Shown in pieces: positions 5,901-24,573 of a stretch of 32,000 nucleotides of DNA. How positions within the stretch are numbered: position 1 is the first letter of the stretch; the number at the start of each line of letters is the position of its first letter. The notes below the pieces were generated by a model, which worked only from the letters and a program-made list of their open reading frames with translations, was not told the DNA's origin and ran no database searches. Origin of the DNA: Oscillospiraceae bacterium (GTDB lineage: Bacteria > Bacillota > Clostridia > Oscillospirales > Acutalibacteraceae); NCBI GenBank assembly GCA_015066205.1, contig SVOV01000002.1, positions 1-32,000 of the forward strand, written 5' to 3'. Made by a program: the position numbers and the translations under genes.

Positions 5901-8256
5901 TCGCATTCTTCAAGTAATCATTACCATAATCAATGGATATGTTTTTCCATTGCACTTTATCTCCACTGTAATATACATCTGTAAGACTAAAGCAGTTTAA
6001 GAATGCATCGTAACCAATGCTTGTTATGCTAGCAGAGATAGTAATTTCCTGAAGATTACGACAAAAATCGAACGCATGATTACCAATATTTGTTACGCTA
6101 TCAGGGATAGTAATTTTTTGAAGACTAAGGCAAAAATCGAACGCATAATTACCAATATCTGTAATACTATCGGGTATAATTATTTCCTTCAGACTACAAC
6201 AATCGGAAAAAGCATATTCGGCAATGTTTGTCACGGTATCAGGGATTACATATTCTGTATTCGGCTTATTTGCCGGATATGTAATCAATAGATCTTTTTC
6301 TTTACTAAACAATATTCCATATTCATCGTTTGAGAAATACTTATTATCTTCATTCACAATAATACTTGTAAGAGCAGCACAACCCCTAAATGCAAAGTTA
6401 CCGATAGAGCTTACCGAAGCCGGGATTTTTATACTTGTAAGACCGGAACAATAACTAAACGCATCACTGCCTATGGTTGTCACTGATTCTGGGATTGTTA
6501 TGTCTGTAAGGCTTTTACAACCCATAAACAAACCAACACCGATAGTGGTTATCGAATCAGGGATTGAAACATTTGTAAGTTTTTTACATTCGCTAAATGC
6601 ATAAGCACCTATGTTTGTTACCCCATTGGGTATTGCAATGCTTGTAAGACTTGAACATCCATAAAAGGCAGAATCGCCTATACTTGTTACGCTGGCGGGC
6701 ATTTCAATGCTTGTAAGACTTGAACATCCAAAAAATGCATCATCACCTATGCTTTTTACTCCGTCGGGGATTACAATGTTTGTAAGGATCCTGCAAAAAT
6801 CAAACGCACCAGCATCTATGCTTGTTACGCTATTCGGGATAAAATATTCTGTTATTGAAATATTTTCAGTATAACAAATTAAATGAGTTTTGTCCTTATT
6901 AAATAATACGCCATATTCATCATTTGAATAATACTCATTTTCTTCATCAACCAATATATAAGTAAGGTCGTTGCACCGAACAAATATTTCAAGACCAATG
7001 TATGTGACACTTTTGGGAATAAAAATTTCCGTAATCCTGTGACAATCGTAGAATGCCGTATCACCGATGGTTATTACGCTGTCGGGGATAGTAATTTTTT
7101 GAAGATATGAACACTCATAAAACGCAGAACCTGAGATAACCACAGTTCCTGGTTTTATGTTGTAATTTTCAGGTAAATTTTCATTGGCTTTTATCAGATA
7201 ATTACCTATATAAAGAACACCATCTTCCCAATTTGTTTCATTGTTATAATATGCAGTACCATAAAATGCATCTGAACCGATACTAATTACACTATCAGGG
7301 ATTGTTATTTCATTAAGATTTAAACAATCTTTAAATGCTTCAGCTGCAATACATACTGTTCCCGGTTTTACACTATAATTTTCAGGCAAATCGTTCTTTG
7401 CTTTTATCAGATAATTACCAAGATAAAGAACACCATTATCCCAGTTCTCATAATTGCTATAATATAAAGTGTTGTAAAACGCATTTGCACCAATACTTAT
7501 TATGCTATCGGGGAGAGTGATTTGTTGAAGATTATTTAAGTCCCTGAACGCATTTCCACAGATACTTGTTATGCCCTCAGAAATCACAACAGATTCAATT
7601 GAGTTTTTGAAATCATGCCAAGAAGATTTAATATCGCAATGCTCTCCTCCTAAATCATCTCTATAATATTTAGAATAAACATATATAGGGCCTGTTCCTG
7701 AAAAGGTTAATGTCCCAAAATGATCAAGTGTCCATTCAAGGTTGTTGCAACACGTTCCTTTTGCATAAAATCTGTAGTCATCCGGGTCAATTTGAACATC
7801 AAAATGAATAGTCAGATTAGACAAATTTTCATTACCTGCACCAACGGTTATTTCGCTCCACTGCGATTGAGAGCCTGAAAAATAAATATTAATTGATGAG
7901 TTTAACCCATTAAATGCATTTGCCCCAAACGATGTAATGCCTTTTTCAATATATATTTTTTTTACCGGAATTAATGATTCAATGGAAAACCCATCCGGAA
8001 AATCCCACATTGCACCAGTACCAGTAATAAAAGCCTTCTGTGTTTCAACGATGTAGTAAAAATATACATCATTACCTAATTGCTCTCTTACTGTATATGC
8101 CTCTGCAGTATCGGAAAATAACGAATTGTTATCAAATTCAGGCAAATTAAATTTGCTGAAATTAATATCAGGAAATTCAATTTCAAAAAAACCCTGTAGT
8201 GGTGCCATAGTCAGGCACATAACCACAACAAGCAGTGAACATAAGATTTTCTTCAT
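2965..8256 (-). CDS. Large secreted multidomain protein: signal peptide, BspA-type leucine-rich repeats, Cys-rich modules, lipase/alpha-beta-hydrolase-like domain, InlB-B/Listeria-Bacteroides-type repeat, Cys/His-rich C-terminal tail
   Basis: I place the start at the ATG at 8256 (MKKILCSLLVVVMCLTMAPLQG signal peptide, preceded by GGAGGTAAAG), not at 8355. There are many approximately 23-aa repeats of the form IPDSVTSIGxxAFxxCxxLxxI. The nucleophile-elbow-like motif is WISGYSRAAATSNL. A B-repeat-like segment reads FVGWYIDGQLVS. The tail is CSHICHK...CECGAAHY. Confidence 0.8.
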   Translation of the reverse strand: MKKILCSLLVVVMCLTMAPLQGFFEIEFPDINFSKFNLPEFDNNSLFSDTAEAYTVREQLGNDVYFYYIVETQKAFITGTGAMWDFPDGFSIESLIPVKKIYIEKGITSFGANAFNGLNSSINIYFSGSQSQWSEITVGAGNENLSNLTIHFDVQIDPDDYRFYAKGTCCNNLEWTLDHFGTLTFSGTGPIYVYSKYYRDDLGGEHCDIKSSWHDFKNSIESVVISEGITSICGNAFRDLNNLQQITLPDSIISIGANAFYNTLYYSNYENWDNGVLYLGNYLIKAKNDLPENYSVKPGTVCIAAEAFKDCLNLNEITIPDSVISIGSDAFYGTAYYNNETNWEDGVLYIGNYLIKANENLPENYNIKPGTVVISGSAFYECSYLQKITIPDSVITIGDTAFYDCHRITEIFIPKSVTYIGLEIFVRCNDLTYILVDEENEYYSNDEYGVLFNKDKTHLICYTENISITEYFIPNSVTSIDAGAFDFCRILTNIVIPDGVKSIGDDAFFGCSSLTSIEMPASVTSIGDSAFYGCSSLTSIAIPNGVTNIGAYAFSECKKLTNVSIPDSITTIGVGLFMGCKSLTDITIPESVTTIGSDAFSYCSGLTSIKIPASVSSIGNFAFRGCAALTSIIVNEDNKYFSNDEYGILFSKEKDLLITYPANKPNTEYVIPDTVTNIAEYAFSDCCSLKEIIIPDSITDIGNYAFDFCLSLQKITIPDSVTNIGNHAFDFCRNLQEITISASITSIGYDAFLNCFSLTDVYYSGDKVQWKNISIDYGNDYLKNANIHYHYNTPHTYTAVVTAPTCTSMGYTTYSCLCDASYVADYVNKLSHKDSDGNNLCDYGCGYSFTTGNVNGNITEKLDNVLGLDYTFTYNDNYFSGSSYVYNHDLAIMSNCLAISAMVDELYYDIFKEFFADNSKISDTFILENNQPKYISEILTAIRSYSSKYKKKDEDEMTAQEKAEKRNAWQNIIYAVQSHGCAANDILMSSLTAGEFFNKIGFANPVHYNYMSIPQMNSIACVIANKKIGNATVIAIGIRGSGYGAEWGGNFNVGTAEEHEGFRIAKEKVLNYLSDYIKNNNITGDVKFWISGYSRAAATSNLVAATLDEGASSYSYISSLNYTPEDVYAYTFETPIPTKDKNTKNALYTNIFNIINRIDYVPKVAPETWGYSRYGVDCFLPSPETYGSKEYDTLLKKMKTQHKNITGKKYTENFTFYDAKFSVKTTGLFNRVFDISFVAPNGNVSQSRYLDEFITIIANNVIKSTSNYVNNYQSSVQKLMIALLGGGFENVEVPENTINEIKAALFEGIKSKIFNNKNDAWRSTLATILSSIDKFNLSYIDSYNLLGMVDEAIITGIAGYNYVYTLIENASDIKPAHFPEMNFAWVTALDGETIIEKINGKSYRVIKYNCPIDIKLYDEDDILLATICGDNVDIAEDCYLSIYIDSNGQKCFCLPEDVKYRFEITGTDNGEMNCSFNTYDFTTGQTIETINYYDISVSEGSQFFVEVDSKESDFDAPAKSLAEQVIIRNESDEEIEIDEILDTENATITVTVGSDSLLSPAIGGGMYNKGEFAKVEAYADTSEAFVGWYIDGQLVSTDASYRFMPENDCKIVAKWTSYCSVNGHIDSEWIIDIDATCAEEGLKHIECTVCGETLKTEAIAKLSHNYNAVVTVPSCTAQGFTTYTCECGDSYVADYVDTVEHNDNDGDEFCDYCDEFLGSDEEEIKCSHICHKSGFMGFIWKVINFFQKLFGISPMCECGAAHY

Positions 8257-8547
8257 TGTCTTTACCTCCAAAAAAAAAGTGTGTGCAAGCCGAAGCTGCA
8301 CACACGAAAAACGCATAGCCTCGCTTGCTGCGACACAATCTTCTGACGAACCCAAAGGATGCCAAAATGAGGGTGCGTTTTTACCAAAAGTAAAAACACA
8401 TCCATCGGGTTCAGATTATTTGATTGCGTCGCAAGTTCAATATAACATAATATTCCAATAACTTCAAGTAAATAATAAAAATTCCTTTTACATTGATATA
8501 ACGTATGTTATAATACTTGAAAACGCACTTTCAAAAAGGAGAGCTGC

Positions 8548-8745
8548 TCGATAGAAGATGAAGTAAAAAGAGGAAGACAAGATAATCAGAAGATGAAGGC
8601 GTACCTTGTTATGCGATTACTTCAGAAGAACACGGATTTTGACAATTTAATGACCTCTGCGCAGATTGCTGATCTGCTGGATAGTTATGGTGTTTCTGCA
8701 CAAAAAAATCCAGTCAGAGAGACATCAACCAAATACAATCTTGAT
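8548..8745 (+). pseudogene. Truncated, frameshifted 5' fragment of a WYL-family regulator gene
   Basis: It encodes ...KRGRQDNQKMKAYLVMRLLQKNTDFDNLMTSAQIADLLDSYGVSAQ, near-identical to the N-terminus of the 369-aa ORF at 15840. The frame is lost near 8706 and homology ends at CTTGAT (8740-8745). Confidence 0.75.
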
Positions 8746-8753
8746 ATTTTCTT

Positions 8754-8813
8754 GCAAAAAAACATCAGACACATCATACCGAAAAACCGTAAAATGATGT
8801 GTCTGACTTTTTT
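8754..8813. terminator. Bidirectional hairpin terminator (copy of the GGGtGRT-gene terminator)
   Basis: CAGACACATCAT / ATGATGTGTCTG stem (8766-8806), flanked by an A-run on the left and a T-run on the right. Confidence 0.6.
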
Positions 8814-8856
8814 ATCAATGATTAAATCTGTGATTTACAAATAAACCTTTGAAAAT

Positions 8857-8953
8857 GGCTTATTTGCTTGCTTCCTCTATAGCAACAGCACATGCAACTG
8901 TCATACCAACCATGGGGTTGTTACCTGCACCGATAAGACCCATCATTTCTACA
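8857..8953. repeat. Direct repeat (att, distal copy): displaced 3' end of the GGGtGRT gene
   Basis: About 97 nt matching 18049-18145 with a handful of mismatches. On the - strand it still reads VEMMGLIGAGNNPMVGMTVACAVAIEEASK*, identical to the C-terminus of the intact gene. The longest perfect core is GTCATACCAACCATGGGGTTGTTACCTGC (8901-8929 = 18092-18120). Confidence 0.85.
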
Positions 8954-9187
8954 TACAAGCGATGCTTGTTTCTCGCCTCTGCGTTGCAGAGGCTCGGAAT
9001 CACGGGAACTGAAGCCTGTTTTTAATACTTTAATAAACAATATAGACACATCATTAAACAGAAACAAAGTGCCCATCACGTATTTAGCATCCACATTATA
9101 GAATCGAATGAACTAAAAGTCAAGAATCAATCATAAACAAAACAAGGTTCATTAAAAATCAGTCAAGATAAACTCAACTTTTGCCAG

Positions 9188-9227
9188 AAGCCTGACCACC
9201 ATTATATGTGTGTCAGGCTTTTCTTTG
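9188..9227 (+). terminator. Hairpin plus T-run inside the left arm of the element
   Basis: AAGCCTGAC (9188-9196) / GTCAGGCTT (9212-9220), followed by TTCTTTG. Confidence 0.45.
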
Positions 9228-9289
9228 CAGAAACTTTAATCAAAAACCTGCACACCCAATTATACACTCTGAGAAAATTGTGAATACAG

Positions 9290-9320
9290 TATAATAATGA
9301 TGCAAGGTGAGGGAACGGTA
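9290..9320 (+). promoter_or_regulatory. Promoter/leader repeat, divergent copy 1
   Basis: TATAAT (9290-9295) followed by AATGATGCAAGGTGAGGGAACGG. It resembles copies 2 and 3. Confidence 0.35.
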
Positions 9321-9467
9321 AACAACCTCACAAGGCAGAAAAATTGAAACATCTGATTTACACTATCAAGTTTGTTTTAATGGGTAAGTTAGTAATTAGA
9401 AGAATCAAGAAATCTGCAAAATGCAAAAATCCTGAAAGGTCAAAAATACACCATCAGGAAAATTCAA

Positions 9468-9505
9468 AAATGATACAATGTAATCACAAGGTAAGGGAAA
9501 GGCCT
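9468..9505 (+). promoter_or_regulatory. Promoter/leader repeat, copy 2 (upstream of the 9538 ORF)
   Basis: AAATGATACAATGTAATCACAAGGTAAGGGAAAGGCC. TACAAT is the -10-like hexamer. The sequence nearly matches copy 3. Confidence 0.5.
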
Positions 9506-9537
9506 TAACCAGAAGAAAAGAAAGGAAATGAAAAAAA

Positions 9538-9825
9538 ATGAAATCAAAATCACTCGTAATCGTAGAAATTCACACAAACACAATTTATGTCTCGGCAACT
9601 GCGGCTCGCGACATCAGAAAGCCTAAAAGAACAGAGTCAATCATCTTATTCAGACACTTTAAAAAAATGTTTCCTTCGGCAACTGTTGAATACTTATCAG
9701 ACGAAGAATATTACAACAGATTTCACGAACATGAAATGGTGCATATTAACAATTTCCTTGCAAGAAATGTTTTATCAGACAATAATTCTGAAAGGACATT
9801 TATACACTACGAGAGAATCGCTTGA
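9538..9825 (+). CDS. Hypothetical protein (95 aa)
   Basis: ORF following repeat copy 2, with a weak AAAGGAAA RBS. I recognise no motif. Confidence 0.45.
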   Translation: MKSKSLVIVEIHTNTIYVSATAARDIRKPKRTESIILFRHFKKMFPSATVEYLSDEEYYNRFHEHEMVHINNFLARNVLSDNNSERTFIHYERIA

Positions 9826-9862
9826 ATGATATAATGTAATCACAAGGTAAGGGTAAGAGCCC
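9824..9862 (+). promoter_or_regulatory. Promoter/leader repeat, copy 3 (upstream of the 9884 ORF)
   Basis: GAATGATATAATGTAATCACAAGGTAAGGGTAAGAGCC. TATAAT is the -10 hexamer. Confidence 0.5.
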
Positions 9863-9883
9863 AAACAAAAAAAGTAAAATTTA

Positions 9884-10399
9884 GTGGCGACTATAAACGC
9901 AAATAAAAAATATATGCTGGCGAGCAAAGAACGCAGAAAGGTAAAAACTATGTTTATTAATGAATCAAAGAGAGAAATCATCGTATCAAAGGCAGAGTAC
10001 ACAAAGGCTATGAAGGTTGGCACACCTGAGTTTGAAGACCTCTTCAGAGCAAAGCAGATATGTCCCAACGCAAAGGTTATTATTAAGAAGTCAAACAACA
10101 AAAATAACTACAAGAATCTTACAAAGAAGTTTATGCTCAACTATGTAAATGCAAATGATAAGAACTACATTGAAACATTTGAACAGTTATTTAATTCCAT
10201 CGGCGAAACAATATATGACGAAGCAAATGACGAATATAAGGAAGTTTCCTTCTTCTATGTTCGCAATGAGTTCTTAAAAAGATATCCCCAGTTTATGACA
10301 CCTTCAGACCGTAAGAAGTTTGAGGAAGCCAATAAGCCTGCATTAACAACTGTATCAACAGAAGAATTTACAGAAGAAATTACAGATGAAGTCGCATAA
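9884..10399 (+). CDS. Hypothetical mobile-element protein, paralogous to the next ORF
   Basis: 171-aa ORF. The start is uncertain (GTG 9884, ATG 9914 or ATG 9950). It shares the pattern KRxIIxxK...SPE(F/Y)...YPxF with the 10419 ORF. Confidence 0.55.
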   Translation: MATINANKKYMLASKERRKVKTMFINESKREIIVSKAEYTKAMKVGTPEFEDLFRAKQICPNAKVIIKKSNNKNNYKNLTKKFMLNYVNANDKNYIETFEQLFNSIGETIYDEANDEYKEVSFFYVRNEFLKRYPQFMTPSDRKKFEEANKPALTTVSTEEFTEEITDEVA

Positions 10400-10418
10400 T
10401 TGAAAGGAGTAAAAAACA

Positions 10419-10895
10419 ATGAACGGAATTAAGGTAGATATCATCAAGCGCAAAATCATCATCAACAAGACATTTGCAAACAAAATGGCAAATACTTCAT
10501 CACCCGAATATAGTGAATATGAAAGAATAATTTCTAAAAATCCTGAGTTCACGGTTGAAGTTAAGGTTCAGAAAACCTACAATCACGATAAATATAAGGG
10601 CTTAAATTATCCCTTCATTGAGGCTTATATTTATTGCCATGAACACGATGAAGAATCCAGAAGAAATGTCTTTGCAGAATATGTTGAAGAAAGATGGAAA
10701 GCCCTTGCTCACTCTTGCGGATTCCAGGAAGTTCGCGCTTGGTTTATTAAGAAATATCCCGAATTCGACAATCTGTATTTCAAAAGTCACGCTCAGCCTG
10801 CCAGAAGCCAGATTGAAGAACTGATATCATATACAGCCTGCATTGAAAACGGAAAAATCATCTTCTCAGAAGAACAGAAACTTCTGACCGCGTAA
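10419..10895 (+). CDS. Hypothetical mobile-element protein, paralog of the 9884 ORF
   Basis: 158-aa ORF with a strong RBS (GAAAGGAG) upstream of the ATG. Confidence 0.65.
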   Translation: MNGIKVDIIKRKIIINKTFANKMANTSSPEYSEYERIISKNPEFTVEVKVQKTYNHDKYKGLNYPFIEAYIYCHEHDEESRRNVFAEYVEERWKALAHSCGFQEVRAWFIKKYPEFDNLYFKSHAQPARSQIEELISYTACIENGKIIFSEEQKLLTA

Positions 10896-11004
10896 AATGC
10901 TCTACTTTGATTTTAATGAAAAATTTTTGTATAATATATATAGAACGTCAGGACAAAATCTGATACTTCAATTTAATAAAAATTCATATATAAAGGAGAA
11001 GAAA

Positions 11005-11130
11005 ATGAGAAATAAAAGATGCAAAAAAATAGACCTTCGGCTTTCTGATTGCGAAAAAGAATCAATCCAACAGACGGCTAAAAAGTTCAATATGAACACA
11101 AGTCAATTCATCAGGTTCGCCTGTGAATAG
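11005..11130 (+). CDS. Short ribbon-helix-helix protein, MobC/CopG-like
   Basis: I place the start at ATG 11005, after the AAAGGAGAAG RBS. The sequence MRNKRCKKIDLRLSDCEKESIQQTAKKFNMNTSQFIRFACE fits the basic-strand plus two-helix RHH pattern of mobilisation accessory proteins. Confidence 0.5.
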   Translation: MRNKRCKKIDLRLSDCEKESIQQTAKKFNMNTSQFIRFACE

Positions 11131-11152
11131 ATTACCAGGAGGATTTGCGGAA

Positions 11153-11710
11153 ATGGGGAATTTCAATCAGGCACCGATTCTGAAATCTAAAGGTGAAAAG
11201 AATAGAGAGAATGGCTTGAAATATGCAGTCAGAACACATTACCTTGAAATGGCGTTGTTTAACATTTTCACGGGTAAAGAGGGAGCGCAGTTGAAACTGA
11301 TACTCTTTTTGACAGGAAACTCAGACAAAGGCAATTTTGCCGTTCCTGAAGCGACAGTTATGAAACGTTGCGGAATGTCTGAAACTACTTATAAAAACGC
11401 AAGAAAAAAATTAGTTGAAAAGGGCTTGATAATTCACAATCCAAGTACAAACGGGCAACAGGGTGAAATTATCGTTGACTATGATGCGATTTATAAATGC
11501 GCAAAGGAGATTATTGATAATACCCCTGTTTCAGACATTGATGATACCCCTTCAAAATCTGATAATACCCCATCAGGGGATATTGAATATACTTATAATA
11601 ATATAAATAATACTATAAATTCAAATAACCAAAATCCGAATATTATAAGTGAGAGAAATCCAAGAGTGAAGGATGATTTCATTGATGAAAACGGAAACTT
11701 TATATTTTAA
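11153..11710 (+). CDS. Winged-helix DNA-binding protein, putative replication initiator
   Basis: ATG 11153 follows AGGAGG. The segment LILFLTGNSDKGNFAVPEATVMKRCGMSETTYKNARKKLVEKGLI resembles the wHTH of phage/plasmid replication organisers. The 3' part contains iteron-like repeats. Confidence 0.45.
   Translation: MGNFNQAPILKSKGEKNRENGLKYAVRTHYLEMALFNIFTGKEGAQLKLILFLTGNSDKGNFAVPEATVMKRCGMSETTYKNARKKLVEKGLIIHNPSTNGQQGEIIVDYDAIYKCAKEIIDNTPVSDIDDTPSKSDNTPSGDIEYTYNNINNTINSNNQNPNIISERNPRVKDDFIDENGNFIF
11516..11571 (+). repeat. Three iteron-like 11-mers GAT(A/G)ATACCCC inside the rep-like gene
   Basis: Copies lie at 11516-11526, 11540-11550 and 11561-11571, spaced 24 and 21 nt apart. A very AT-rich stretch follows at about 11586-11640. 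Confidence 0.5.
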
Positions 11711-11802
11711 GAAAAAGGAGAAAAATTATGAGTAAATACGTAGATAATATTTATAATAAATATTTGTAGAAAGGCTGGTGTAAGAAATTCCTGAGTGCAG
11801 GT

Positions 11803-12138
11803 GTGTACTCAATAACCATAAACAATAAAATCGTTTACATAGGAAAAAGTAATAATATTCTTTATCGAATGGCGGAACATTGGGCTTTAACTACAAATCC
11901 AAAAGAAAACAAATACAAGGTTCTTGCCGAAGCCAAGAGGCGAAATTATAATGTGAAATTCAATGTGCTGTATTATGCCAAAAGTCAGACAAGAACAGAA
12001 ATTGAAGAAGAAATCGGCGAAAGAGAAGGTTATTTTATTCGCCTATTCAGACCGCCCCTGAATTATCAGATACCAACAGAAGACAACTGGCGAACTTACA
12101 CAGGCAATAGCGGTGCATTGAATATATCCCTTGATTAG
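11803..12138 (+). CDS. GIY-YIG family nuclease
   Basis: VYSITINNKIVYIGKSNNILYRMAEH supplies the GIY...YIG...R motifs. REGYFIRLFRPPLNYQ supplies the conserved E and N. The start is a GTG. Confidence 0.7.
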   Translation: MYSITINNKIVYIGKSNNILYRMAEHWALTTNPKENKYKVLAEAKRRNYNVKFNVLYYAKSQTRTEIEEEIGEREGYFIRLFRPPLNYQIPTEDNWRTYTGNSGALNISLD

Positions 12139-12157
12139 ATTATGGAGGGAGATTTTT

Positions 12158-12271
12158 ATGAATAAAGACGATTTTCAGAAATTAAGTTATTTCCGTGATA
12201 GAGGCATGGTGCCAGATTTGTTCTGGTATCAGTTAAACGGCAAATCTCCGCAGGAGAATTTTGAAGAATAG
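12158..12271 (+). CDS. Small hypothetical protein (37 aa)
   Basis: Not in the ORF track because it is under 60 aa. ATG is preceded by GGAGGGAG. It reads MNKDDFQKLSYFRDRGMVPDLFWYQLNGKSPQENFEE. Confidence 0.35.
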   Translation: MNKDDFQKLSYFRDRGMVPDLFWYQLNGKSPQENFEE

Positions 12272-12360
12272 CGAAACAATCTTTATGAACAAATAAATTA
12301 CGGTGATAACAACGAACCGATGAATATAAAAGTCACCTGCGAAAGTAAGGTGAAAAAGTA

Positions 12361-12501
12361 ATGGCGAATCCAAAAGATAACAAAAAAAAGAAAAAGAAGA
12401 AAAGTGTTATTGAGGCTGAATTATTTTCATTTCTTCATAAAAGTATGAAGACCGCACTTGATATGGCACTTGATGAAATATTCAAAGACTTCAATAAATA
12501 A
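12361..12501 (+). CDS. Small lysine-rich hypothetical protein (46 aa)
   Basis: MANPKDNKKKKKKKSVIEAELFSFLHKSMKTALDMALDEIFKDFNK. It ends immediately before a terminator. Confidence 0.3.
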   Translation: MANPKDNKKKKKKKSVIEAELFSFLHKSMKTALDMALDEIFKDFNK

Positions 12502-12506
12502 TACTA

Positions 12507-12552
12507 ACGGCAAACCAAGAGAAAACAATCTCACGGTTTGCCGTATTTTTTC
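12507..12552 (+). terminator. Rho-independent terminator closing the rightward left-arm module
   Basis: ACGGCAAACC (12507-12516) / GGTTTGCCGT (12535-12544), followed by ATTTTTT. Confidence 0.75.
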
Positions 12553-12817
12553 GTTTATGCTCCTTTTGGCTCGTCAGCCGAAGAAAAGATTATTATATCC
12601 TTTGCGGTCGGGAAAACCGTCTTTCAGAATCAAACCAACATTCAGACGGAGAGTGAGCCACGCAAAATTACAAGCCTGCCGAACGGTTTGAATTTTCCCG
12701 TAATACACCGCCCAGTATGGTGTCAAAGAAAAGAGTTGTTTTCATAGACACTTTCAAACGAGAAAAAAAGGGTGTGATATGCCCCCGAAAACACACAATT
12801 TTTGTTCAGGAAAAAAC

Positions 12818-13045
12818 TTACCCCTTTTCTTGAACATCAGGTTCTTTTACATACTCGACCAAATCACCCACCTGACAGTCCAAGAGTGAACAGAGTGTAT
12901 CAATAGTTTTCCACGAAACCAATTCGCCGTGTCTGATTTGCTGAAGGTATGACTGACCGATAAGTTTTTCTTCACGGATTTTTGTTGATGAGAATCCTTT
13001 GTTCTTCAGTTCTGCCATAATATCAATCTTATACTGGAGTGCCAT
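12818..13045 (-). CDS. XRE/Cro-C1-type HTH transcriptional regulator
   Basis: 75-aa ORF. IGQSYLQQIRHGELVSWKTIDTLCSLLDCQVGDLVEY is typical of short XRE-family repressors of Firmicutes mobile elements. It faces a divergent promoter region containing palindromes. Confidence 0.75.
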   Translation of the reverse strand: MALQYKIDIMAELKNKGFSSTKIREEKLIGQSYLQQIRHGELVSWKTIDTLCSLLDCQVGDLVEYVKEPDVQEKG

Positions 13046-13090
13046 TTTTTAACACCACCTTTCCCACTATAACAATTATACTACAGCAAT

Positions 13091-13181
13091 GCACTAAAAT
13101 CAAGTGCTAAAAATGCACAAATATTGCACTAAAAGTTAGTGTAATATGTCAATAGACAGCACTAATATTTAGTGCTATAAT
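13091..13181. promoter_or_regulatory. Three-operator divergent control region
   Basis: Palindromes are built on GCACTAA/TTAGTGC: 13091-13107 (GCACT-N7-AGTGC), 13126-13142, and a perfect AGCACTAA-TAT-TTAGTGCT at 13158-13176. The last overlaps TATAAT at 13176-13181. Confidence 0.65.
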
Positions 13182-13228
13182 ATAGACAGTTGATAAACAA
13201 CACAACAAAAACAAAGGAGATATGAAAT

Positions 13229-13504
13229 ATGTCAAACAACGAAATCATCAGAAACATCGAGGCTCTTGCAGAGTGGGAAACAATCATCGAGGATGCAAAG
13301 GCAGAGGCTGAGGCAATCAGAGATATGTTAAAGGCTGAAATGCTCGAACAGAACACCGAGGAACTTGAGGCAGGTGCATACATTATCCGTTGGACTTCAG
13401 TTCTTTCACAGAGATTTGATACAACGGCTTTCAAAAAGTCTCACGCCGATATGTATAAGGAATACACAAAACAGGTCAGCAGTCGCCGATTCTCAATCTG
13501 CTGA
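13229..13504 (+). CDS. Hypothetical coiled-coil protein, first gene of the recombinase operon
   Basis: 91-aa ORF with RBS AAAGGAGA. The N-terminal half is an acidic helix. I recognise no catalytic motif. Confidence 0.6.
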   Translation: MSNNEIIRNIEALAEWETIIEDAKAEAEAIRDMLKAEMLEQNTEELEAGAYIIRWTSVLSQRFDTTAFKKSHADMYKEYTKQVSSRRFSIC

Positions 13505-13516
13505 AAGAATTACAAA

Positions 13517-13539
13517 TGCCCTGCCGCAAAGGCAGGGCA
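13517..13539 (+). other. GC-rich perfect hairpin between the 13229 ORF and the recombinase gene
   Basis: TGCCCTGCC-GCAAA-GGCAGGGCA. No T-run follows. The recombinase RBS lies directly downstream. Confidence 0.5.
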
Positions 13540-13555
13540 GAGAAAGGATAAGATT

Positions 13556-14143
13556 ATGAATTACGGATATGCACGATGCTCGACAAATGAGAGTAAGCAG
13601 GATATTCAGAGGCAGGTCAAAGAACTGAAAGAGGCTGGCGCAAAAGAAATATTCCTTGAATACGAACACGGCGACAGTACCGTCAAACAAGAACTTTCTT
13701 CGCTTCTGGAACAAGCCAAAGAGGGGGATACAATTTACACACTTGAAGTCTCCAGACTTGCCAGAAGTACAAAACAACTTTGTGACATTATTGACACCGT
13801 AAAGGACAAGAAACTCAGACTTGTAATTGTCGGCAGTATCACGGTCGATTGTTCAAACGGTCAGATTGACCCTATGACAAATGCCTTCATTCAGATGTCG
13901 GGCGTGTTTGCAGAACTTGAACTTCGCATTATAAGAGAACGTGTGCGGTCTGGGATGGCAAACGCCAAGGCAAAAGGGGCTAAAATCGGGCGACCGCACA
14001 CAACAACGGAAGAAATCCCACAAATATTTTTCAGACATTATCCTGCGTTCAAGTCGGGCAGTCTGAACCTTTCAGAGTTCGCAAGAGTGTGCGGTCTGAG
14101 CAGAACTACGGTTTATAAATATGTAGGTCTTTTGGAAGGGTAA
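13556..14143 (+). CDS. Small serine recombinase (resolvase/invertase family)
   Basis: YGYARCSTNESKQDIQRQ supplies the catalytic Ser motif. Also present are SRLARS, AELELRIIRERVRSGM and a C-terminal HTH (LSEFARVCGLSRTTVYKYV). Confidence 0.9.
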   Translation: MNYGYARCSTNESKQDIQRQVKELKEAGAKEIFLEYEHGDSTVKQELSSLLEQAKEGDTIYTLEVSRLARSTKQLCDIIDTVKDKKLRLVIVGSITVDCSNGQIDPMTNAFIQMSGVFAELELRIIRERVRSGMANAKAKGAKIGRPHTTTEEIPQIFFRHYPAFKSGSLNLSEFARVCGLSRTTVYKYVGLLEG

Positions 14144-14149
14144 AAGTAA

Positions 14150-14176
14150 AGGGAACGGCTTTGTGCCATTCCCTTT
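14150..14176. terminator. Bidirectional hairpin between convergent genes
   Basis: GGGAACGG (14151-14158) / CCATTCCC (14166-14173) with one mismatch, flanked by an A-run and a T-run. Confidence 0.5.
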
Positions 14177-14188
14177 ATATATGTTAAT

Positions 14189-14374
14189 TTAAGCCCATTC
14201 AGTAATATCTAAAACAGTCCAACCTCTAACCCTTCCATATTTAATGAGTTCATCTCGTCTCAATGTATGAATATAATCTATATCGATTTTCGAAAGTGCA
14301 TTCTGACTAAAAATTTTCATTTTTACTTTATCATTACCAAAATTTGACTTTATCTCTACAATTGTTTGTGTCAT
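14189..14374 (-). CDS. 61-aa hypothetical protein, translationally coupled partner of the Mrr-type nuclease
   Basis: Its AAGGAGA RBS overlaps the stop codon of the upstream 423-aa ORF. I recognise no motif. Confidence 0.6.
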   Translation of the reverse strand: MTQTIVEIKSNFGNDKVKMKIFSQNALSKIDIDYIHTLRRDELIKYGRVRGWTVLDITEWA

Positions 14375-14385
14375 AATAATTCTCC

Positions 14386-15657
14386 TTATAAATAATAGTA
14401 GTTTTCCAATAATTCACGTAGTTTTATTCCATCAATCAATTCTATTGGTTTTTCTTGAGCAAAAATTTGTGCTTGTTTTGTGAAAGTTCCAGATGTCATT
14501 AAGATGCCTTTGTTTGCTCTTTCGGAGGTAATAACACCATATAAATCTCTAATAGTAGGTTCTCCTACGCTTCCAGTATAACGTTTGCACTGTATAATAT
14601 ATTTTCCCGAAAGTAACGGTTGATGATTATATGCAATCAAATCAATACCGCCATCACCAGTGGTTTTTGTAGTTTCAACTTCAAAGCCCATATTCTCCAA
14701 CAATCTTTTACATACCAACTCAAACTCAACTCCAGTAAGAGAGTTTATATTTTCATATGCAGCATTGTATTGGTCACTAAAAGATTTAGCAACTCTAACA
14801 TTGTGACTACCATAAAACGAGACTACTTCCTTTGCTTTTTCAGTATTAAACAAAAGTGGAAGACCGTTAATTTTCACCAAACTCCAATCCCTAAAAGTTA
14901 CTCCCGTCCACTCAATGTCAACATCCTTCCATTTCACACTTGCCTTGTAATACATTTCGTTATGCTCACCATTATATACAATAATATACTCATCAGTAAA
15001 AGCAAGTGAAACTGTAAGAAATTCCAAAAAATTGTCTTTTGTTTCATCTTTGCTTTTTGCGATATCAATCACTATTGCGTCTTGGTGGCTTTCGTATGGT
15101 ACAAATTGAGAATCACCACTTTTGATTATCTCTTTGATTTCATTAGTTGCTGTATTAAGCAGAGCAGAAATCTGAACGTTATATTTGTGTCGTTCTTTCT
15201 GTTCTTGTTGCCAATCATAATCCAATATAAGTGTACTAACTGCACGTTTTACATATTGCTCTTGTTTATCAAGCCAGCCATATTCTTTCAACCTACGAAC
15301 TATTTCAATGTACAAATCCAATTTTCGCAAATCATACACAAAAAACGGATTACCACCAAGGCACATAAACTCTTTCATTTTTCGCTTATATTCATCAATT
15401 GTATATTTTGCTTGCCAAACATCATTTGCTGAAACATATCCGTTTTCTATTTGGTCATCAGAGATTAACTCATCATAATCTGGATTTTTACAATTTATTT
15501 CCCATAACCACTTAATAAAACTTGATTCGTAATTCAATATTTTATCAACATTGCTTATGCTTGCTTTTGTTTCTCTCTCTTGTTCTTGAGCCTCTCTCTT
15601 TTTTTCACTGATTTCAGCCGCCGCCATCGCCCCGAAAAAAGATTTTAAAAATCCCAT
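14386..15657 (-). CDS. Mrr-cat (PD-(D/E)xK) restriction-endonuclease-domain protein with an unassigned ~300-aa N-terminal region
   Basis: The last ~115 aa (nt about 14389-14735) read FELVCKRLLENMGFEVETTKTTGDGGIDLIAY...GKYIIQCKRYTGSVGEPTIRDLYGV...KGILMTSGTFT. This is the classic Mrr D...QxK core. RBS AGGAGAG lies upstream of the ATG at 15657. Confidence 0.8.
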   Translation of the reverse strand: MGFLKSFFGAMAAAEISEKKREAQEQERETKASISNVDKILNYESSFIKWLWEINCKNPDYDELISDDQIENGYVSANDVWQAKYTIDEYKRKMKEFMCLGGNPFFVYDLRKLDLYIEIVRRLKEYGWLDKQEQYVKRAVSTLILDYDWQQEQKERHKYNVQISALLNTATNEIKEIIKSGDSQFVPYESHQDAIVIDIAKSKDETKDNFLEFLTVSLAFTDEYIIVYNGEHNEMYYKASVKWKDVDIEWTGVTFRDWSLVKINGLPLLFNTEKAKEVVSFYGSHNVRVAKSFSDQYNAAYENINSLTGVEFELVCKRLLENMGFEVETTKTTGDGGIDLIAYNHQPLLSGKYIIQCKRYTGSVGEPTIRDLYGVITSERANKGILMTSGTFTKQAQIFAQEKPIELIDGIKLRELLENYYYL

Positions 15658-15839
15658 AATTATCTCTCCTACACAATCAAAATGTATGCAAACAAAGAAC
15701 TATCTTTGATGAATATAACATCGTTTTAAGTTTATCATTGTTATTTTAAAAAATCAACTATTTGTTCAAGTTATTGCGCCTTTACTTTAACACTTTTTAT
15801 ATGTTATAATATCACCAATATGACCAAAAGGGTGATAAT
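15658..15839. promoter_or_regulatory. Divergent control region between the nuclease operon and the WYL regulator
   Basis: TATAAT at 15805-15810. Palindrome CAAAGA-ACTA-TCTTTG at 15694-15709. Imperfect inverted repeat TAATATCACC (15807-15816) / GGTGATAATA (15831-15840) spans the -10 and the RBS of the WYL gene. Confidence 0.35.
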
Positions 15840-16949
15840 ATGGAAGAAGCAAAAAGAGGCAGACAAGATAACCAAAAGATGAAGGCATACCTTGTTATGC
15901 GCTTACTTCAGAAGAACACGGATTTTGATAATTTAATGACCTCTGCGCAAATTGCTGAACTCCTGGACAGTTATGGTGTTTCCGCACAAGAGAAGTCAAT
16001 TCAGAGGGATATTAAGGCAATTAACGCAACACTTGAAGTTGAAGAAGCCATTCTGAACGGTGAAGATTATCATATTGATGAAGCACTCGAATATCTTGAA
16101 GAAGACAAAGAAATCAGAAGTATTCAGTACCGAAGCGCAAGTACAACAAAACGCGGATATTATTTTCAAAGAGAAGAAGGCTTTTTTGAATTAATCAGAC
16201 TGCTTCTGGAAAGTGTCTATTCATCAAAATTTATCACAAAAAAAGATGCAGACTACCTTAAAAAATATATTCTGAAAGATGTCAGCAAATTTGATATTAA
16301 AAAGTTAGACCATATTTCACCTATTGTCAGCAAAAGTAAAACCAAAAATTCTCAGGTGTTCGATAATGTTAAAGTGTTAAGTGATGCGATTACCGCAAGA
16401 TGCAAGGTCGAATTTAATTATAATAATTTCTACATTCCAGAAGGGTCAGATAAGCCTAAAACCAAGTACGGCAGAAAAGACGAAAAATACATTGTCAGTC
16501 CGTATCACCTGTTAATCAATGATGGTAATTATTATCTTCTTTGTTTTGATGAAAAGAACAAAAAGAAATGGACTTACCGTGTTGACCGAATGGAAAATGT
16601 AAGTCTGCGAAAAGATGAAAAAAGAGATGGCGCAGAGTGCTTCTATGACTTCAACGCAAATGAATACGCAAAGACAAACTTTTCAATGTTCGAGGGTGAA
16701 AACAAATTTATTACAATCAAGTTTGTAAACACTTGTATGAATGCTGTTGTTGAGAAAATCGGAACAGAAAAAATCACGTATAAAAATTTTGACAACGGAC
16801 ATTTCACCGTAACAATGCGGACTGGTATCAATGAGCAGTTCTACGGTTGGCTTTGTACTTTTGGAAACAGGGCTCAGGTTGTTGAACCGCAGGAGCAAAT
16901 CGATGCATTTAAGGACTACGTAAACAAGATAACATCATTATACGAATGA
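15840..16949 (+). CDS. HTH-WYL-domain transcriptional regulator (BrxR/CapW/PafBC-like architecture)
   Basis: N-terminal HTH (MTSAQIAELLDSYGVSAQEKSIQRDIKAI). WYL core (YIVSPYHLLINDGNYYLLCFDEKNKKKWTYRVDRMENV). The C-terminal extension ends FYGWLCTFGNRAQVVEP. Confidence 0.8.
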   Translation: MEEAKRGRQDNQKMKAYLVMRLLQKNTDFDNLMTSAQIAELLDSYGVSAQEKSIQRDIKAINATLEVEEAILNGEDYHIDEALEYLEEDKEIRSIQYRSASTTKRGYYFQREEGFFELIRLLLESVYSSKFITKKDADYLKKYILKDVSKFDIKKLDHISPIVSKSKTKNSQVFDNVKVLSDAITARCKVEFNYNNFYIPEGSDKPKTKYGRKDEKYIVSPYHLLINDGNYYLLCFDEKNKKKWTYRVDRMENVSLRKDEKRDGAECFYDFNANEYAKTNFSMFEGENKFITIKFVNTCMNAVVEKIGTEKITYKNFDNGHFTVTMRTGINEQFYGWLCTFGNRAQVVEPQEQIDAFKDYVNKITSLYE

Positions 16950-16954
16950 AAAAT

Positions 16955-16979
16955 GCCTGCTTCCGAGCAGGCGTTTTTT
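16955..16979. terminator. Bidirectional terminator between the convergent WYL and integrase genes
   Basis: GCCTGCT-TCCG-AGCAGGC followed by GTTTTTT and preceded by GAAAAAT. Confidence 0.75.
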
Positions 16980-17026
16980 AGTGTTTATTCATATTCATTT
17001 TGTATGTTCGTGTTTCAACAAACTTA

Positions 17027-17926
17027 TCAATAAGATTTATGCTTGTTGACTTCTTCCGCAGTTTCACTCACAAGCATATTGATATAGTTCTGTGTTATCG
17101 CCAGATTACTGTGTCCTAATATCTTCTGGAGAGAAACAACGTTACCGCCGTTCAGAATCCATTGTTTGGCGAAAGTATGTCTGTATCTGTGTATTCCTGT
17201 TGTTTCCACGCCCCTGTTTTTGTTGTAAGTGTAAAGTTGGTTATAACTTGTACTCTTAGTTAGTTGTTTGCCGAATACGTTACAAAACAGAAAATCTTCA
17301 CCCGAATTGTGTTGTCTGTAGGTCAGATATTCCTTCAGAATGTTCGCCATTGTCTGACTTATGGGAACAACAAGAGGCTTTCTGTTTTTTGTTACGTTAA
17401 TACTCAGAATATTATTGAACAGGTCAACATCTTTAACCTTAATGTGTATCAGACTGCGTTGTCTGAGCCCTGTTGAGAACAGAAGGTTCGTCTGCACCCA
17501 ACATTGATATTCTGTAAATTTGCATTTCTTTAAGTCTGGCTTCTGGAGCAAAACCTTAAGTTCCTCATTTGAATATGTTTCAATAGTGTGTTTATCAACC
17601 TTTATTGCCTGCATCTTGAAATACGGAATATAACCTTCGTTCATCCAGAAGTGAAAAGTGGTAATCAAATCACGTAGATATGAATTGACACTTACATCGT
17701 TATCAATAGAACTGCAAAGATAAACAACATAATCCTTGTATGTTTGCTCGGTAATTTCGCTCAGGAGCAGCTCGCGGTCAAAATATTTATAAAACTGAGT
17801 ATAACTTTGCTTGTAGTGATTGATTGTTCCTTGTCGCAGATTTCTCTGTTTACAGTTAAGGATATACTTGTCGCAACCTTGCTCAAAGGTGATTGATACT
17901 TGCCTAATCATTGATAATTTCTTCAT
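17027..17926 (-). CDS. Tyrosine site-specific recombinase (phage-type integrase)
   Basis: 299-aa ORF. TGLRQRS supplies the catalytic Arg, HRYRHTFA the HxxR box, and LGHSNLAITQNYI the His plus Tyr nucleophile. It lies next to the att repeat. Confidence 0.9.
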   Translation of the reverse strand: MKKLSMIRQVSITFEQGCDKYILNCKQRNLRQGTINHYKQSYTQFYKYFDRELLLSEITEQTYKDYVVYLCSSIDNDVSVNSYLRDLITTFHFWMNEGYIPYFKMQAIKVDKHTIETYSNEELKVLLQKPDLKKCKFTEYQCWVQTNLLFSTGLRQRSLIHIKVKDVDLFNNILSINVTKNRKPLVVPISQTMANILKEYLTYRQHNSGEDFLFCNVFGKQLTKSTSYNQLYTYNKNRGVETTGIHRYRHTFAKQWILNGGNVVSLQKILGHSNLAITQNYINMLVSETAEEVNKHKSY

Positions 17927-17955
17927 AAAAACTTGACTCCTACTTGATGTTTTTA

Positions 17956-18005
17956 CTAAAAAACGTTAGACCCATCATGACTTGAAACCGTCAAATGATG
18001 GGTCT
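17956..18005 (-). terminator. Rho-independent terminator of the GGGtGRT gene
   Basis: AGACCCATCAT / ATGATGGGTCT stem (17968-18005). The A-run at 17958-17963 gives a U-run on the - strand. Confidence 0.7.
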
Positions 18006-18048
18006 AATTGTTTATCAATGATTAAATTTTAAGCAAATGCTCAAAAGT

Positions 18049-18145
18049 GGCTTATTTGCTTGCTTCTTCAATAGCAACAGCACATGCAACGGTCATACCA
18101 ACCATGGGGTTGTTACCTGCGCCGATGAGTCCCATCATTTCTACG
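18049..18145. repeat. Direct repeat (att, integrase-proximal copy) forming the functional 3' end of the GGGtGRT gene
   Basis: It matches 8857-8953. All differences are synonymous in the - strand reading frame. Confidence 0.85.
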
Positions 18146-19050
18146 TGAGCGGGAACGGAGGAGGAGCCTGCGAACTGTGCGTCGGAGTGCATTCTGCCCA
18201 TTGTATCTGTCATACCGTAGGAAGCGGGGCCTGCTGCCATATTGTCGGGATGAAGAGTACGGCCTGTGCCGCCGCCTGATGCAACGGAGAAATACTTCTT
18301 GCCGATTTCGTTACATTCCTTCTTATATGTGCCTGCAACGGGATGCTGGAAGCGGGTGGGGTTAGTTGAGTTACCTGTGATGGAAACGTCAACACCTTCG
18401 TGATGCATAATAGCAACGCCTTCACGGACATCGTCTGCACCGAAGCAACGAACCTTAGCTCTGGGGCCGTTTGAATATGCCTTTTCGCTTACGATTTCGA
18501 GCTTACCTGTCATATAATCGAACTTTGTTTCAACGAATGTGAAGCCGTTGATTCTGGAGATTATCTGAGCAGCGTCCTTTCCGAGACCGTTAAGAATAAC
18601 CTGAAGGGGTTCTTTTCTTACCTTGTTTGCGGAATTAGCGATACCGATAGCACCTTCAGCTGCTGCGAAGGATTCGTGACCTGCAAGGAAAGCGAAGCAC
18701 TTTGTTTCTTCTCTTAAAAGCATAGCAGCGAGGTTGCCGTGGCCGAGACCAACCTTTCTGTCATCAGCAACTGAACCGGGGATACAGAAAGCCTGAAGGC
18801 CTTCACCGATAGCTTCAGCAGCGTCAGCTGCCTTTGTGCAGCCCTTCTTGATAGCGATAGCTGTACCTGTGATATATGCCCAGCAAGCATTTTCAAAGCA
18901 GATGGGCTGAATGCTCTTGATAAGGTTATATACATCGATACCCTTATCGTCACAGATCTTCTTTGCTTCTTCGAGAGAGGCAATGCCGTACTTTTCGAGT
19001 GCAACGTTGATCTGGTTAATTCTTCTTTCGTAACTTTCAAATAAAGCCAT
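18052..19050 (-). CDS. GGGtGRT-family protein (conserved, function unknown)
   Basis: 332-aa ORF containing the eponymous SVASGGGTGRTLHPD motif. Confidence 0.85.
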   Translation of the reverse strand: MALFESYERRINQINVALEKYGIASLEEAKKICDDKGIDVYNLIKSIQPICFENACWAYITGTAIAIKKGCTKAADAAEAIGEGLQAFCIPGSVADDRKVGLGHGNLAAMLLREETKCFAFLAGHESFAAAEGAIGIANSANKVRKEPLQVILNGLGKDAAQIISRINGFTFVETKFDYMTGKLEIVSEKAYSNGPRAKVRCFGADDVREGVAIMHHEGVDVSITGNSTNPTRFQHPVAGTYKKECNEIGKKYFSVASGGGTGRTLHPDNMAAGPASYGMTDTMGRMHSDAQFAGSSSVPAHVEMMGLIGAGNNPMVGMTVACAVAIEEASK

Positions 19051-24307: not shown

Positions 24308-24324
24308 AAAGAGGTGCAAAAATT

Positions 24325-24573
24325 ATGATAAAGAATTATATATATAAAGCAATTTTTTGCGCAATATCGGTGGTTGTTGTTTTTTGTATTGCAGGCAGAT
24401 TTGTAAGTAACTCAGGTATTGATGATATGATATACATAATGCTTATAATAGTTATTGCTCTTCTGGTTTTCCTGGTGATAATCTCAGTTGGTATTTATAA
24501 AAGAATAGATGTTCTTTATTATGGGGAAGCAGAACAGAAATCAACAGAAAAAGACAATTTAAGGCATCAATAA
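24325..24573 (+). CDS. Small membrane protein (82 aa, two hydrophobic helices)
   Basis: RBS AGAGGTG upstream of the ATG. It starts 17 nt after the preceding stop. Confidence 0.6.
   Translation: MIKNYIYKAIFCAISVVVVFCIAGRFVSNSGIDDMIYIMLIIVIALLVFLVIISVGIYKRIDVLYYGEAEQKSTEKDNLRHQ

Follow-up and report, generated by a model that had tools for sequence, protein, structure and literature searches.

What is the function of a gene for an Mrr-type nuclease that is followed at once by a gene of 61 codons and faced by a divergent WYL regulator? We addressed this question at positions 14189-16949 of a 32,000-nucleotide (nt) stretch of DNA from an Oscillospiraceae bacterium (contig SVOV01000002.1 of assembly GCA_015066205.1, forward strand; hereafter the window). 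An initial annotation, made from the letters alone, had described the three genes as a self-contained, transcriptionally gated defence or abortive-infection module. Our analysis divides the trio. The nuclease and the small protein, a putative modulator, form a two-gene cargo cassette, in which the Mrr-family nuclease carries a helical N-terminal domain (N-domain) and a PH-like domain, and the WYL regulator belongs to the element that transports them. That the cassette acts in defence or exclusion stands, in our judgement, at even chances. The trio proteins have exact matches at NCBI, from a metagenome-assembled genome of Ruminococcaceae/Oscillospiraceae, and the locus comprises the following features:

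14386-15657, minus strand: gene for the 423-amino-acid (aa) nuclease (NCBI MBE6789722.1, 'restriction endonuclease').
14189-14374, minus strand: gene for the 61-aa partner (NCBI MBE6789721.1, 'hypothetical protein').
14381-14388, minus strand: overlap of the nuclease stop codon (TAA, 14388-14386) with the ribosome-binding site (RBS) of the 61-aa gene (AAGGAGA, 14387-14381).
15840-16949, plus strand: gene for the 369-aa WYL/WCX regulator (NCBI MBE6789723.1, 'WYL domain-containing protein').
15658-15839, no strand: divergent intergenic region of 182 nt between the nuclease and WYL genes.
13556-14143, plus strand: gene for a small serine recombinase (resolvase, 195 aa) of the element's backbone (Pfam Resolvase, E 7.8e-31).
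14148-14176, no strand: GC-rich inverted repeat (AAAGGGAATGGC...GCCGTTCCCTTT), read from the sequence, between the convergent 61-aa and resolvase genes.
17027-17926, minus strand: gene for the tyrosine integrase of the backbone (Pfam Phage_integrase, E 1e-30), for which gene callers choose an upstream start, giving 315 aa.

The C-terminal part of the 423-aa protein is a full-length Mrr domain, as first proposed. Mrr_cat (PF04471) matches residues 305-417 with an E-value of 8.8e-35 (119.7 bits against a cut-off of 21; profile positions 2-115 of 115), and the motifs quoted in the initial annotation are located at G334-Y343 (GDGGIDLIAY), Y353-Y360 (YIIQCKRY) and I385-T393 (ILMTSGTFT). Residue D339, within GGID, and residues Q356 and K358, which form the QxK of Q356-C-K358, are invariant in 68 of 68 homologues. 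D...QxK is the catalytic pattern of Mrr enzymes, and established knowledge of that family is the basis on which we assign these three residues to catalysis. Because they are invariant, the nuclease core is probably intact and active, and the 423-aa protein is probably an active DNA endonuclease. A secondary Pfam match to the 'inactive' NA-iREase1 family leaves this interpretation unchanged. About 60 homologues cover the full length of the nuclease, at 38-73% identity.

Residues 1-300, in which the initial annotation could assign no motif, likewise matched nothing in Pfam (including matches up to E 5), NCBIfam or PHROG. An AlphaFold2 (AF2) model built with the 68 homologues, with a mean predicted local distance difference test score (pLDDT) of 86.4, divides the protein into three parts:

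15157-15657, minus strand: helical N-domain, residues 1-167 (AF2 model and conservation).
14740-15126, minus strand: PH-like beta domain followed by a long C-terminal helix, residues 178-306 (AF2, Foldseek).
14407-14745, minus strand: Mrr_cat PD-(D/E)xK domain, residues 305-417, with putative catalytic residues D339, Q356 and K358 (Pfam, Foldseek).

The modelled N-domain comprises helices at residues 3-53, 67-72, 77-99, 110-126, 129-136 and 143-167, with a near-invariant N-terminus, MGFLKSFFGAMAA, and an invariant pair of glycines at residues 101-102. The second part has seven strands and then a helix spanning residues 272-306. Its closest structures in the PDB by Foldseek are the PH and PTB folds of talin F3, GRK2 PH and ARAP2 PH (E 2e-3 to 1e-2); it also resembles, weakly, a phage 'Bacterial PH domain protein', and it is missing from some homologues, for example P0062 and P0069. 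The Mrr domain, with pLDDT values of 66-89 per block of 10 residues, superposes on MspJI, AspBHI, AF1548 and EndoMS (Foldseek against the PDB, E 3e-6 to 2e-3). Sequence searches of the PDB with the whole nuclease, the N-terminal profile, the Mrr domain and the family profile returned no useful match.

This architecture places the protein near two groups of restriction enzymes. Like the E. coli type IV enzyme Mrr and other PF04471 enzymes, it has a full-length Mrr_cat domain with D...QxK and no methyltransferase nearby. Unlike canonical Mrr, it has a helical and PH-like N-terminus in place of the winged-helix Mrr_N domain (no Pfam match at E up to 5), and it is co-translated with a conserved small partner gene. 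MspJI and AspBHI are the best structural matches of the nuclease domain (Foldseek E 6e-6 to 3e-4), and they too join a non-catalytic N-terminus to a C-terminal Mrr-like nuclease; their reader is an SRA-like domain, whereas the beta domain here is PH/PTB-like, and the sequence identity is 13-20%.

The N-domain is not tied to the nuclease. When 1.84 billion representative proteins were searched with a profile of residues 1-300, only 80 clusters were retrieved, with varied downstream domains in five arrangements. The first, the short form found in the window, is N-domain, PH-like domain and Mrr; the second adds a C-terminal extension to these three; the third joins N-domain, Mrr and C-terminal extension; and the fourth, which has no nuclease, consists of the N-domain and C-terminal extension (P0258, P0260, P0265 and others). 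In the fifth, the N-domain precedes Ltp repeats (PF07553), as in P0308 (425 aa, 52.2 bits) and P0289 (318 aa, 25.5 bits); Ltp is the prototype superinfection-exclusion lipoprotein (PMC3952083). Since N-domain proteins without the nuclease exist, the nuclease appears to be an optional insert in the scaffold. By this distribution, the N-domain is a rare, separable module and the nuclease an optional payload. Among INPHARED phages and PLSDB plasmids, we found matches to the Mrr domain only, all below 47% identity and 53% coverage, and IMG/VR held no relatives of the N-domain.

A conserved N-domain with variable payloads (Mrr, helical extension, Ltp repeats), and a small gene immediately downstream, would also be expected of a secreted nuclease resembling a polymorphic toxin, with the N-domain serving in export or trafficking and the small protein as immunity protein. 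We regard this as very improbable. The proteins match no LXG, WXG or other secretion domain in Pfam at E up to 5, no secretion-system genes occur among the neighbours inspected, and the small gene varies independently of the toxin domain, as one and the same nuclease has two partner types and the long forms have none. An LXG-type polymorphic toxin in particular was considered and dropped, Pfam support being absent even at E up to 5.

How is the 61-aa protein connected to the nuclease? The two genes are tightly coupled at the level of translation signals. On the minus strand the junction reads ...TAT TTA TAA GGAGA ATTATT ATG, such that the start codon of the 61-aa gene (14374-14372) lies 6 nt past AAGGAGA, and the gap between stop codon and ATG is 11 nt. 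The overlap of RBS and stop codon noted initially was thus borne out, and comparison of loci shows the pair to be a conserved two-gene unit. The inverted repeat at 14148-14176 is a probable bidirectional terminator closing the nuclease operon; a consensus terminator scan did not call it. Homologues of the 61-aa protein, at 49-100% identity, lie directly after a short-form nuclease gene wherever their context is known (L003/L004, L005, L007 and L009), each with its own RBS. In nine pairwise comparisons the ratio of non-synonymous to synonymous substitution rates (dN/dS) was 0.11-0.28, with one of ten pairs saturated, which indicates that the 61-aa gene is under purifying selection. The AF2 model (pLDDT 84) has a beta-beta-alpha-alpha-beta topology, and the protein matches no Pfam, PHROG or NCBIfam family.

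A small open reading frame (ORF) begins 5-25 nt downstream of the nuclease in all seven short forms and in none of seven long forms, which have a fused C-terminal extension of 190-320 aa in its place. We considered the 61-aa protein as a remnant of that extension and rejected the idea, as a profile of 10 sequences found nothing better than E 0.1 among 120 family proteins. The small ORF is not always of the same kind. In two short-form loci (L001/L002 and L006), an unrelated ORF of 76-81 aa, which we call 'FITDDG', takes its place after the nuclease, on a backbone with an integrase and Rep_OBD/helicase:

L001, 9279-9521: 'FITDDG' ORF.
L002, 4101-4343: 'FITDDG' ORF.
L006, 11284-11529: 'FITDDG' ORF.

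Divergence of the 61-aa protein roughly tracks that of the nuclease, yet one nuclease, P0010, is 100% identical in L001/L002, where it has the 'FITDDG' partner, and in L003/L004, where it has the 61-aa partner. We infer that one function, likeliest control of the nuclease, is provided either by a small protein or by the fused extension.

The pair resembles type II toxin-antitoxin systems in that two adjacent genes are coupled and one of them is small (11-nt gap; seven of seven short forms). The main alternative to our reading, though less probable, is an addiction module that pairs a stable toxin, the Mrr nuclease, with a labile antitoxin, the small protein, and so stabilises the carrier element instead of defending against phage. 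It would fit the coupled order of toxin and then small partner, the purifying selection on the partner, the small downstream ORF in every short form and the occurrence of the pair on a mobile element wherever the backbone could be identified (the window, L001/2, L005, L006 and L009). It is harder to reconcile with identical P0010 nucleases beside two unrelated small proteins, with long forms that have no small partner and with a 61-aa protein that has neither a DNA-binding nor a known antitoxin fold. Mrr_cat is not known as a typical toxin domain of such systems. A module can, however, act both as a toxin-antitoxin pair and in abortive defence, and the addiction reading therefore overlaps the explanation we prefer, a defence or exclusion nuclease with a small modulator.

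We next consider the third gene, for which the initial annotation had proposed a role as dedicated switch. Its product has WYL (E 6.9e-12, 45.6 bits) and WCX (E 4.6e-07, 30.5 bits) domains, each over the Pfam cut-off. The WYL assignment and the 182-nt spacing held; the helix-turn-helix (HTH) motif is probable, as the N-terminus matches no Pfam HTH model and the motif is suggested by the sequence MTSAQIAELL...SIQRDIKAI, a PADLOC WYL model covering residues 16-352 and homologues named 'YafY' at JGI. As a single sequence, the protein matched the WYL domains of 7u02, 7tzv and 8tp8 weakly (E 2e-3 to 8e-3), entries that we take to be DriD; the family profile matched no PDB chain at E <= 0.01.

A metagenome scan for WYL relatives gave five loci, and sibling elements were gathered by exact-protein look-ups instead. 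In the siblings examined, WYL homologues (37-97% identity) sit between the cargo slot and the integrase, with no integrase gene called beside WYL at L095. By comparison, none of the 13 other distinct loci of the nuclease family has a WYL gene, as judged with the window protein as query and with a hidden Markov model of 118 WYL homologues. A gene that is absent beside the nuclease elsewhere, and kept with any cargo or none, is part of the vehicle. By its distribution, then, the WYL protein is the element's own regulator, a backbone and not a cargo gene, which is connected with the nuclease by position only and in a single element lineage. The proposal of a self-contained trio fails on this comparison; with regard to co-occurrence, what holds is the small ORF after the nuclease (seven of seven short forms), not the WYL gene (0 of 13 loci).

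The region between the divergent genes gives a similar picture:

15781-15810, plus strand: promoter-like site of the WYL gene (TTTACT, 18-nt spacer, TATAAT, TG extension; from a scan).
15806-15841, plus strand: 11-nt inverted repeat, ATAATATCACC, 14 nt, GGTGATAATAT, between the WYL -10 element and the start codon, overlapping the RBS.
16947-16980, plus strand: terminator-like hairpin after the WYL gene (from a scan).

Among siblings, only the WYL-proximal ~95 nt is conserved, including the extended -10 element TGTTATAAT and the next ~35 nt. The nuclease-proximal part shows no conservation with sibling elements or with nuclease loci on other backbones. The inverted repeat at 15806-15841 may act as an autoregulatory operator or as a hairpin that sequesters the RBS; siblings retain it in part, without clear compensatory changes, and the RBS itself makes up one of its arms. 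No further copy of it was found closer to the nuclease. The WYL protein would autoregulate at its own conserved promoter, and from its position it may control the divergent cargo promoter.

WYL regulators of the BrxR/CapW type are reported beside diverse defence systems (PMC9122601, PMC9122588). The protein studied here is like them in having WYL and WCX domains and a probable HTH, and in adjoining variable cargo that includes bona fide restriction-modification (R-M) genes; it is unlike them in being kept with the integrase as backbone even where the slot is empty or filled with non-defence genes. The original model, by which the three genes make up one dedicated defence system and WYL is the specific gate of the nuclease, draws on those reports, on the divergent arrangement across 182 nt and on the fact that the window nuclease has no leader RNA (see below), for which another form of control could substitute. 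We nevertheless judge it improbable, given the absence of WYL from all 13 other nuclease loci, the different cargo or empty slot flanked by WYL homologues (37-88% identity), and an intergenic region in which ~95 nt upstream of WYL are backbone and the rest is unconserved in siblings.

What, then, is the vehicle? A pair of direct repeats of ~200 nt, with an integrase gene just inside the right copy, identifies window 8953-17949 as a ~9-kb integrative element in the 3' end of a gene of the GGGtGRT family:

8745-8952, no strand: left att-type repeat (copy of the GGGtGRT 3' end plus terminator hairpin).
17950-18144, no strand: right att-type repeat, part of which coincides with the 3' end of the GGGtGRT host gene.
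18052-19050, minus strand: intact GGGtGRT host gene.
14144-15793, no strand: cargo cassette of 1.66 kb (nuclease, 61-aa gene and ~135 nt upstream; blastn against L064).

The repeats, which contain the last ~95 nt of the GGGtGRT gene and its terminator hairpin, are ~85% identical over ~200 nt in a gapped alignment (direct repeats D4 and D14), and the insertion site is common to sibling elements. Together with the domain matches, they substantiate the earlier placement of the trio between an integrase and a serine recombinase inside an integrated element. From the left, the backbone comprises attL, small ORFs, a NikA-like protein, an HTH_36 Rep-like protein that resembles replication initiators, a GIY-YIG protein, a Cro/CI-like HTH protein and a 91-aa protein that matches phage families; these are followed on the right by the resolvase, cargo slot, WYL regulator, integrase and attR. 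No methyltransferase could be recognised among the element's ORFs. The GC content is ~33-35% over the element and a neighbouring gene for a leucine-rich repeat (LRR) and lipase protein (about 3.5-17.9 kb), as against 43-48% in flanking host genes. The element with identical trio proteins occurs on 22 contigs.

The borders of the cassette are defined by the sibling L064, whose WYL protein is 82% identical. Homology by blastn covers window positions 13555-14137 (resolvase) and 15794-18145 (WYL promoter, WYL, integrase and att), with none between, and this break marks 14144-15793 as cargo; the L064 slot has a gene for a 183-aa lipoprotein-like protein instead. Nuclease loci on other backbones share only ~14177-15670, so that homology extends no further than ~13 nt beyond the start codon of the nuclease, on its upstream side. 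Other siblings hold the following in the same position:

L083, 3321-7834: type III R-M pair (MTase_III, E 3.8e-111; REase_III, E 4e-14).
L095, 4262-6983: DpnII-type R-M cassette.
L073: Na/H exchanger.
L077: pentapeptide protein and a 572-aa protein.
L080: 970-aa protein.
L081: Zn-ribbon membrane protein.
L092-L094: small unknown proteins and an XRE regulator.
L082, 5437-5578: empty slot.

About 12 slot variants were distinguished: two with R-M genes, one with this nuclease, one empty, and the others with membrane or surface proteins or unclassified genes. The resolvase is kept in most siblings; none was called at L080, whose neighbourhood differs. From these comparisons, ~9-kb integrative elements with a single cargo hotspot form a family in gut and rumen Clostridia. 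P4-like satellites and phage-inducible chromosomal islands (PICIs) are phage-satellite or integrative elements that have defence or cargo hotspots, and the family described here similarly has a small integrative backbone with one position at which unrelated cargo is swapped. It differs from them in its hosts, gut and rumen Clostridia, in its backbone of tyrosine integrase, WYL regulator, resolvase and Rep-like protein, in cargo that is only partly defence-like and in a structured leader RNA shared by many of the cargo genes.

Siblings that share the backbone lack the cassette, and in one of them the slot is empty; the cassette is therefore dispensable for the element. It also moves between unrelated backbones: the pair of nuclease and 61-aa gene is found with a large serine recombinase and Mob-like proteins (L005, L009), beside an AbiLi-like ATPase (L007) and in L003/L004. 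These two observations speak against a nuclease that merely serves the element's life cycle, by cleavage of replication intermediates, by homing or in maintenance, and has no role against invaders. Its presence on mobile elements, and the GIY-YIG, Rep-like and recombinase genes of the present one, would suit such a role, to which we assign very little probability.

The leader RNA mentioned above bears on how the cargo may be controlled. A conserved leader of ~140 nt precedes the nuclease gene in 6 of the 13 other loci, in short and long forms alike. It comprises a promoter, a long P1 helix (GGUAAAAACG... pairing ...GCGUUUUUCG) around two hairpins, and an intrinsic terminator after P1, directly before the RBS. 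With a covariance model, we found 14 full-length copies in the loci examined:

Window, 8261-8400, minus strand: before the LRR/lipase gene.
L001, 7856-7990; L003, 233-367; L006, 9853-9987; L007, 9867-9988.
L008, 9856-9998; L009, 8286-8425; L044, 7130-7271.
L064, 7707-7852, minus strand; L081, 4059-4204, minus strand: before slot cargo.
L085-L087 and L089: copies in viral contigs.

In a pattern scan of viral contigs, four of eight matches were chance hits within a coding gene. Pairing is well supported, with 96.6% of cells paired and 21 of 31 pairs varying on both sides. Values this high did not occur in any of 500 shuffles, and slid controls yielded no more than 8 such pairs, in an alignment that was itself fitted to the model. 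An alternative pairing of 5-8 bp with the apical terminator arm is available in 12 of 12 distinct copies, hinting at a possible covarying antiterminator, though per-sequence shuffles gave weak values (p 0.006-0.33). The genes that follow the leader encode members of the nuclease family, the LRR/lipase protein, the lipoprotein, the Zn-ribbon membrane protein and small membrane proteins. Rfam has no family for the leader, or for any part of the window, and we consider the leader a candidate riboswitch or attenuator absent from that database. The nuclease gene of the window has no leader. As many relatives do, conditional control of the nuclease would often be present, and would here be missing or replaced; loss of the leader is compatible with WYL regulation of the nuclease, yet no evidence for it.

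Does the cassette act in defence? The initial annotation had held that it could not be matched to a named system, and PADLOC, NCBIfam and PDB searches agreed, naming nothing beyond the Mrr domain. The models PDC-S02, mREase_IV, ZorD and LmuA of PADLOC match the Mrr domain only. Four PDC-S02 profiles and two of mREase_IV reach E-values of 1e-12 to 3e-22, but they align only residues 235/293-421 of 423 with the C-terminal portions of the models, leaving the 300-aa N-terminus unshared. In the titles and abstracts examined, PDC-S02 itself figures solely as an unvalidated candidate. The genomic context is more informative. R-M systems occupy sibling slots, and three relatives of the nuclease adjoin AbiLi-like (E 1.4e-91 and 2.9e-27) or TmtA-like (E 1.4e-46) genes. 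The two proteins that join the N-domain to Ltp superinfection-exclusion repeats fit this picture. This context suggests a defence role without being statistical, and it keeps the role originally proposed plausible, tempered by a count of only 3 of 13 related loci with defence neighbours.

We propose the following mechanism. The nuclease would cut DNA through its D...QxK site as an effector of defence or exclusion for both element and host. The helical N-domain and PH-like domain would replace the winged-helix reader and could serve in targeting, oligomerisation or regulation. The 61-aa protein would act in trans as a modulator, likeliest a brake or sensor adaptor, and in long-form relatives the fused C-terminal helical extension would do its job. 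As to how the nuclease is set in action, we tentatively favour a nuclease that is restrained and released on invasion, following an abortive or toxin-antitoxin-like logic, although we would not call this probable. Constitutive cutting of modified or foreign DNA, as by type IV enzymes, is suggested by the lack of a methyltransferase and seems to us somewhat less probable still.

Several observations weigh against a nuclease-based defence cassette of this kind. Recognisable defence genes neighbour only 3 of the 13 related loci, and the full-length nuclease matches no named defence system. The same slot can be empty or be filled with genes of no defence-like appearance (Na/H exchanger, pentapeptide protein, lipoprotein, LRR/lipase surface protein), and the existence of proteins with N-domain and C-terminal extension alone makes the nuclease optional within its own scaffold. 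The two unrelated partners of identical P0010 argue against a highly specific, lock-and-key inhibitor. The fold of the 61-aa protein finds no match in the PDB (best E 0.27), PH-like domains are not known to read modified DNA, and no minus-strand site in 15658-15839 passed a consensus scan for the nuclease promoter.

An Mrr nuclease on a mobile element is ordinary in kind. If the proposed reading is correct, its novelty would lie in an Mrr-based effector architecture new to defence, in gut and rumen Clostridia, whose repertoire is poorly studied, and in a compact element family whose slot beside WYL could be mined for defence genes, having already yielded type II and type III R-M systems. The leader RNA could be a new regulator of cargo genes on mobile elements. 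For annotation, the locus advises caution: a WYL gene beside a nuclease is by itself not evidence of a dedicated system, and here it is a vehicle gene. We speculate that all these parts belong together, namely a two-component abortive or exclusion system with an interchangeable trans partner or fused extension, whose N-domain is a targeting module common to it and to proteins with Ltp repeats; a WYL-flanked hotspot of undescribed ~9-kb Clostridial elements; and cargo often gated by a new riboswitch-like leader. As a joint claim, this is doubtful.

Remains of a second element adjoin the one described above. On its left side, at window 2762-8952, follows in tandem another copy of the element family, which is older and decayed. 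A 152-nt copy of the WYL 5' end at 8557-8708, 90% identical to 15843-15994, is joined to the region upstream of the integrase and the att region (8740-8952); from this direct join, the rest of WYL and the integrase were deleted in the old copy. A copy of the hairpin at 2762-2834, with a 21-nt match of 2926-2946 to 14142-14162, is a possible old left end, or could be due to chance. The divergent cargo of the decayed copy is a 1796-aa BspA-type LRR and lipase protein. Its translation probably begins at the ATG at 8255, after which comes a signal peptide (MKKILCSLLVVVMCL). Its gene contains repeats of 69 nt and 213 nt (6001-7545; families D1 and D2) that correspond to BspA-type LRR_5 modules, an ordinary structure for a repeat protein.

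A second block of low GC content (29-38%) extends over 24300-32000. It encodes a sigma-70 region-4 protein at 24893-25417 and a run of ORFs on the same strand with no Pfam match except for a DUF6560 protein at 30754-31278, and it may be another horizontally acquired region.

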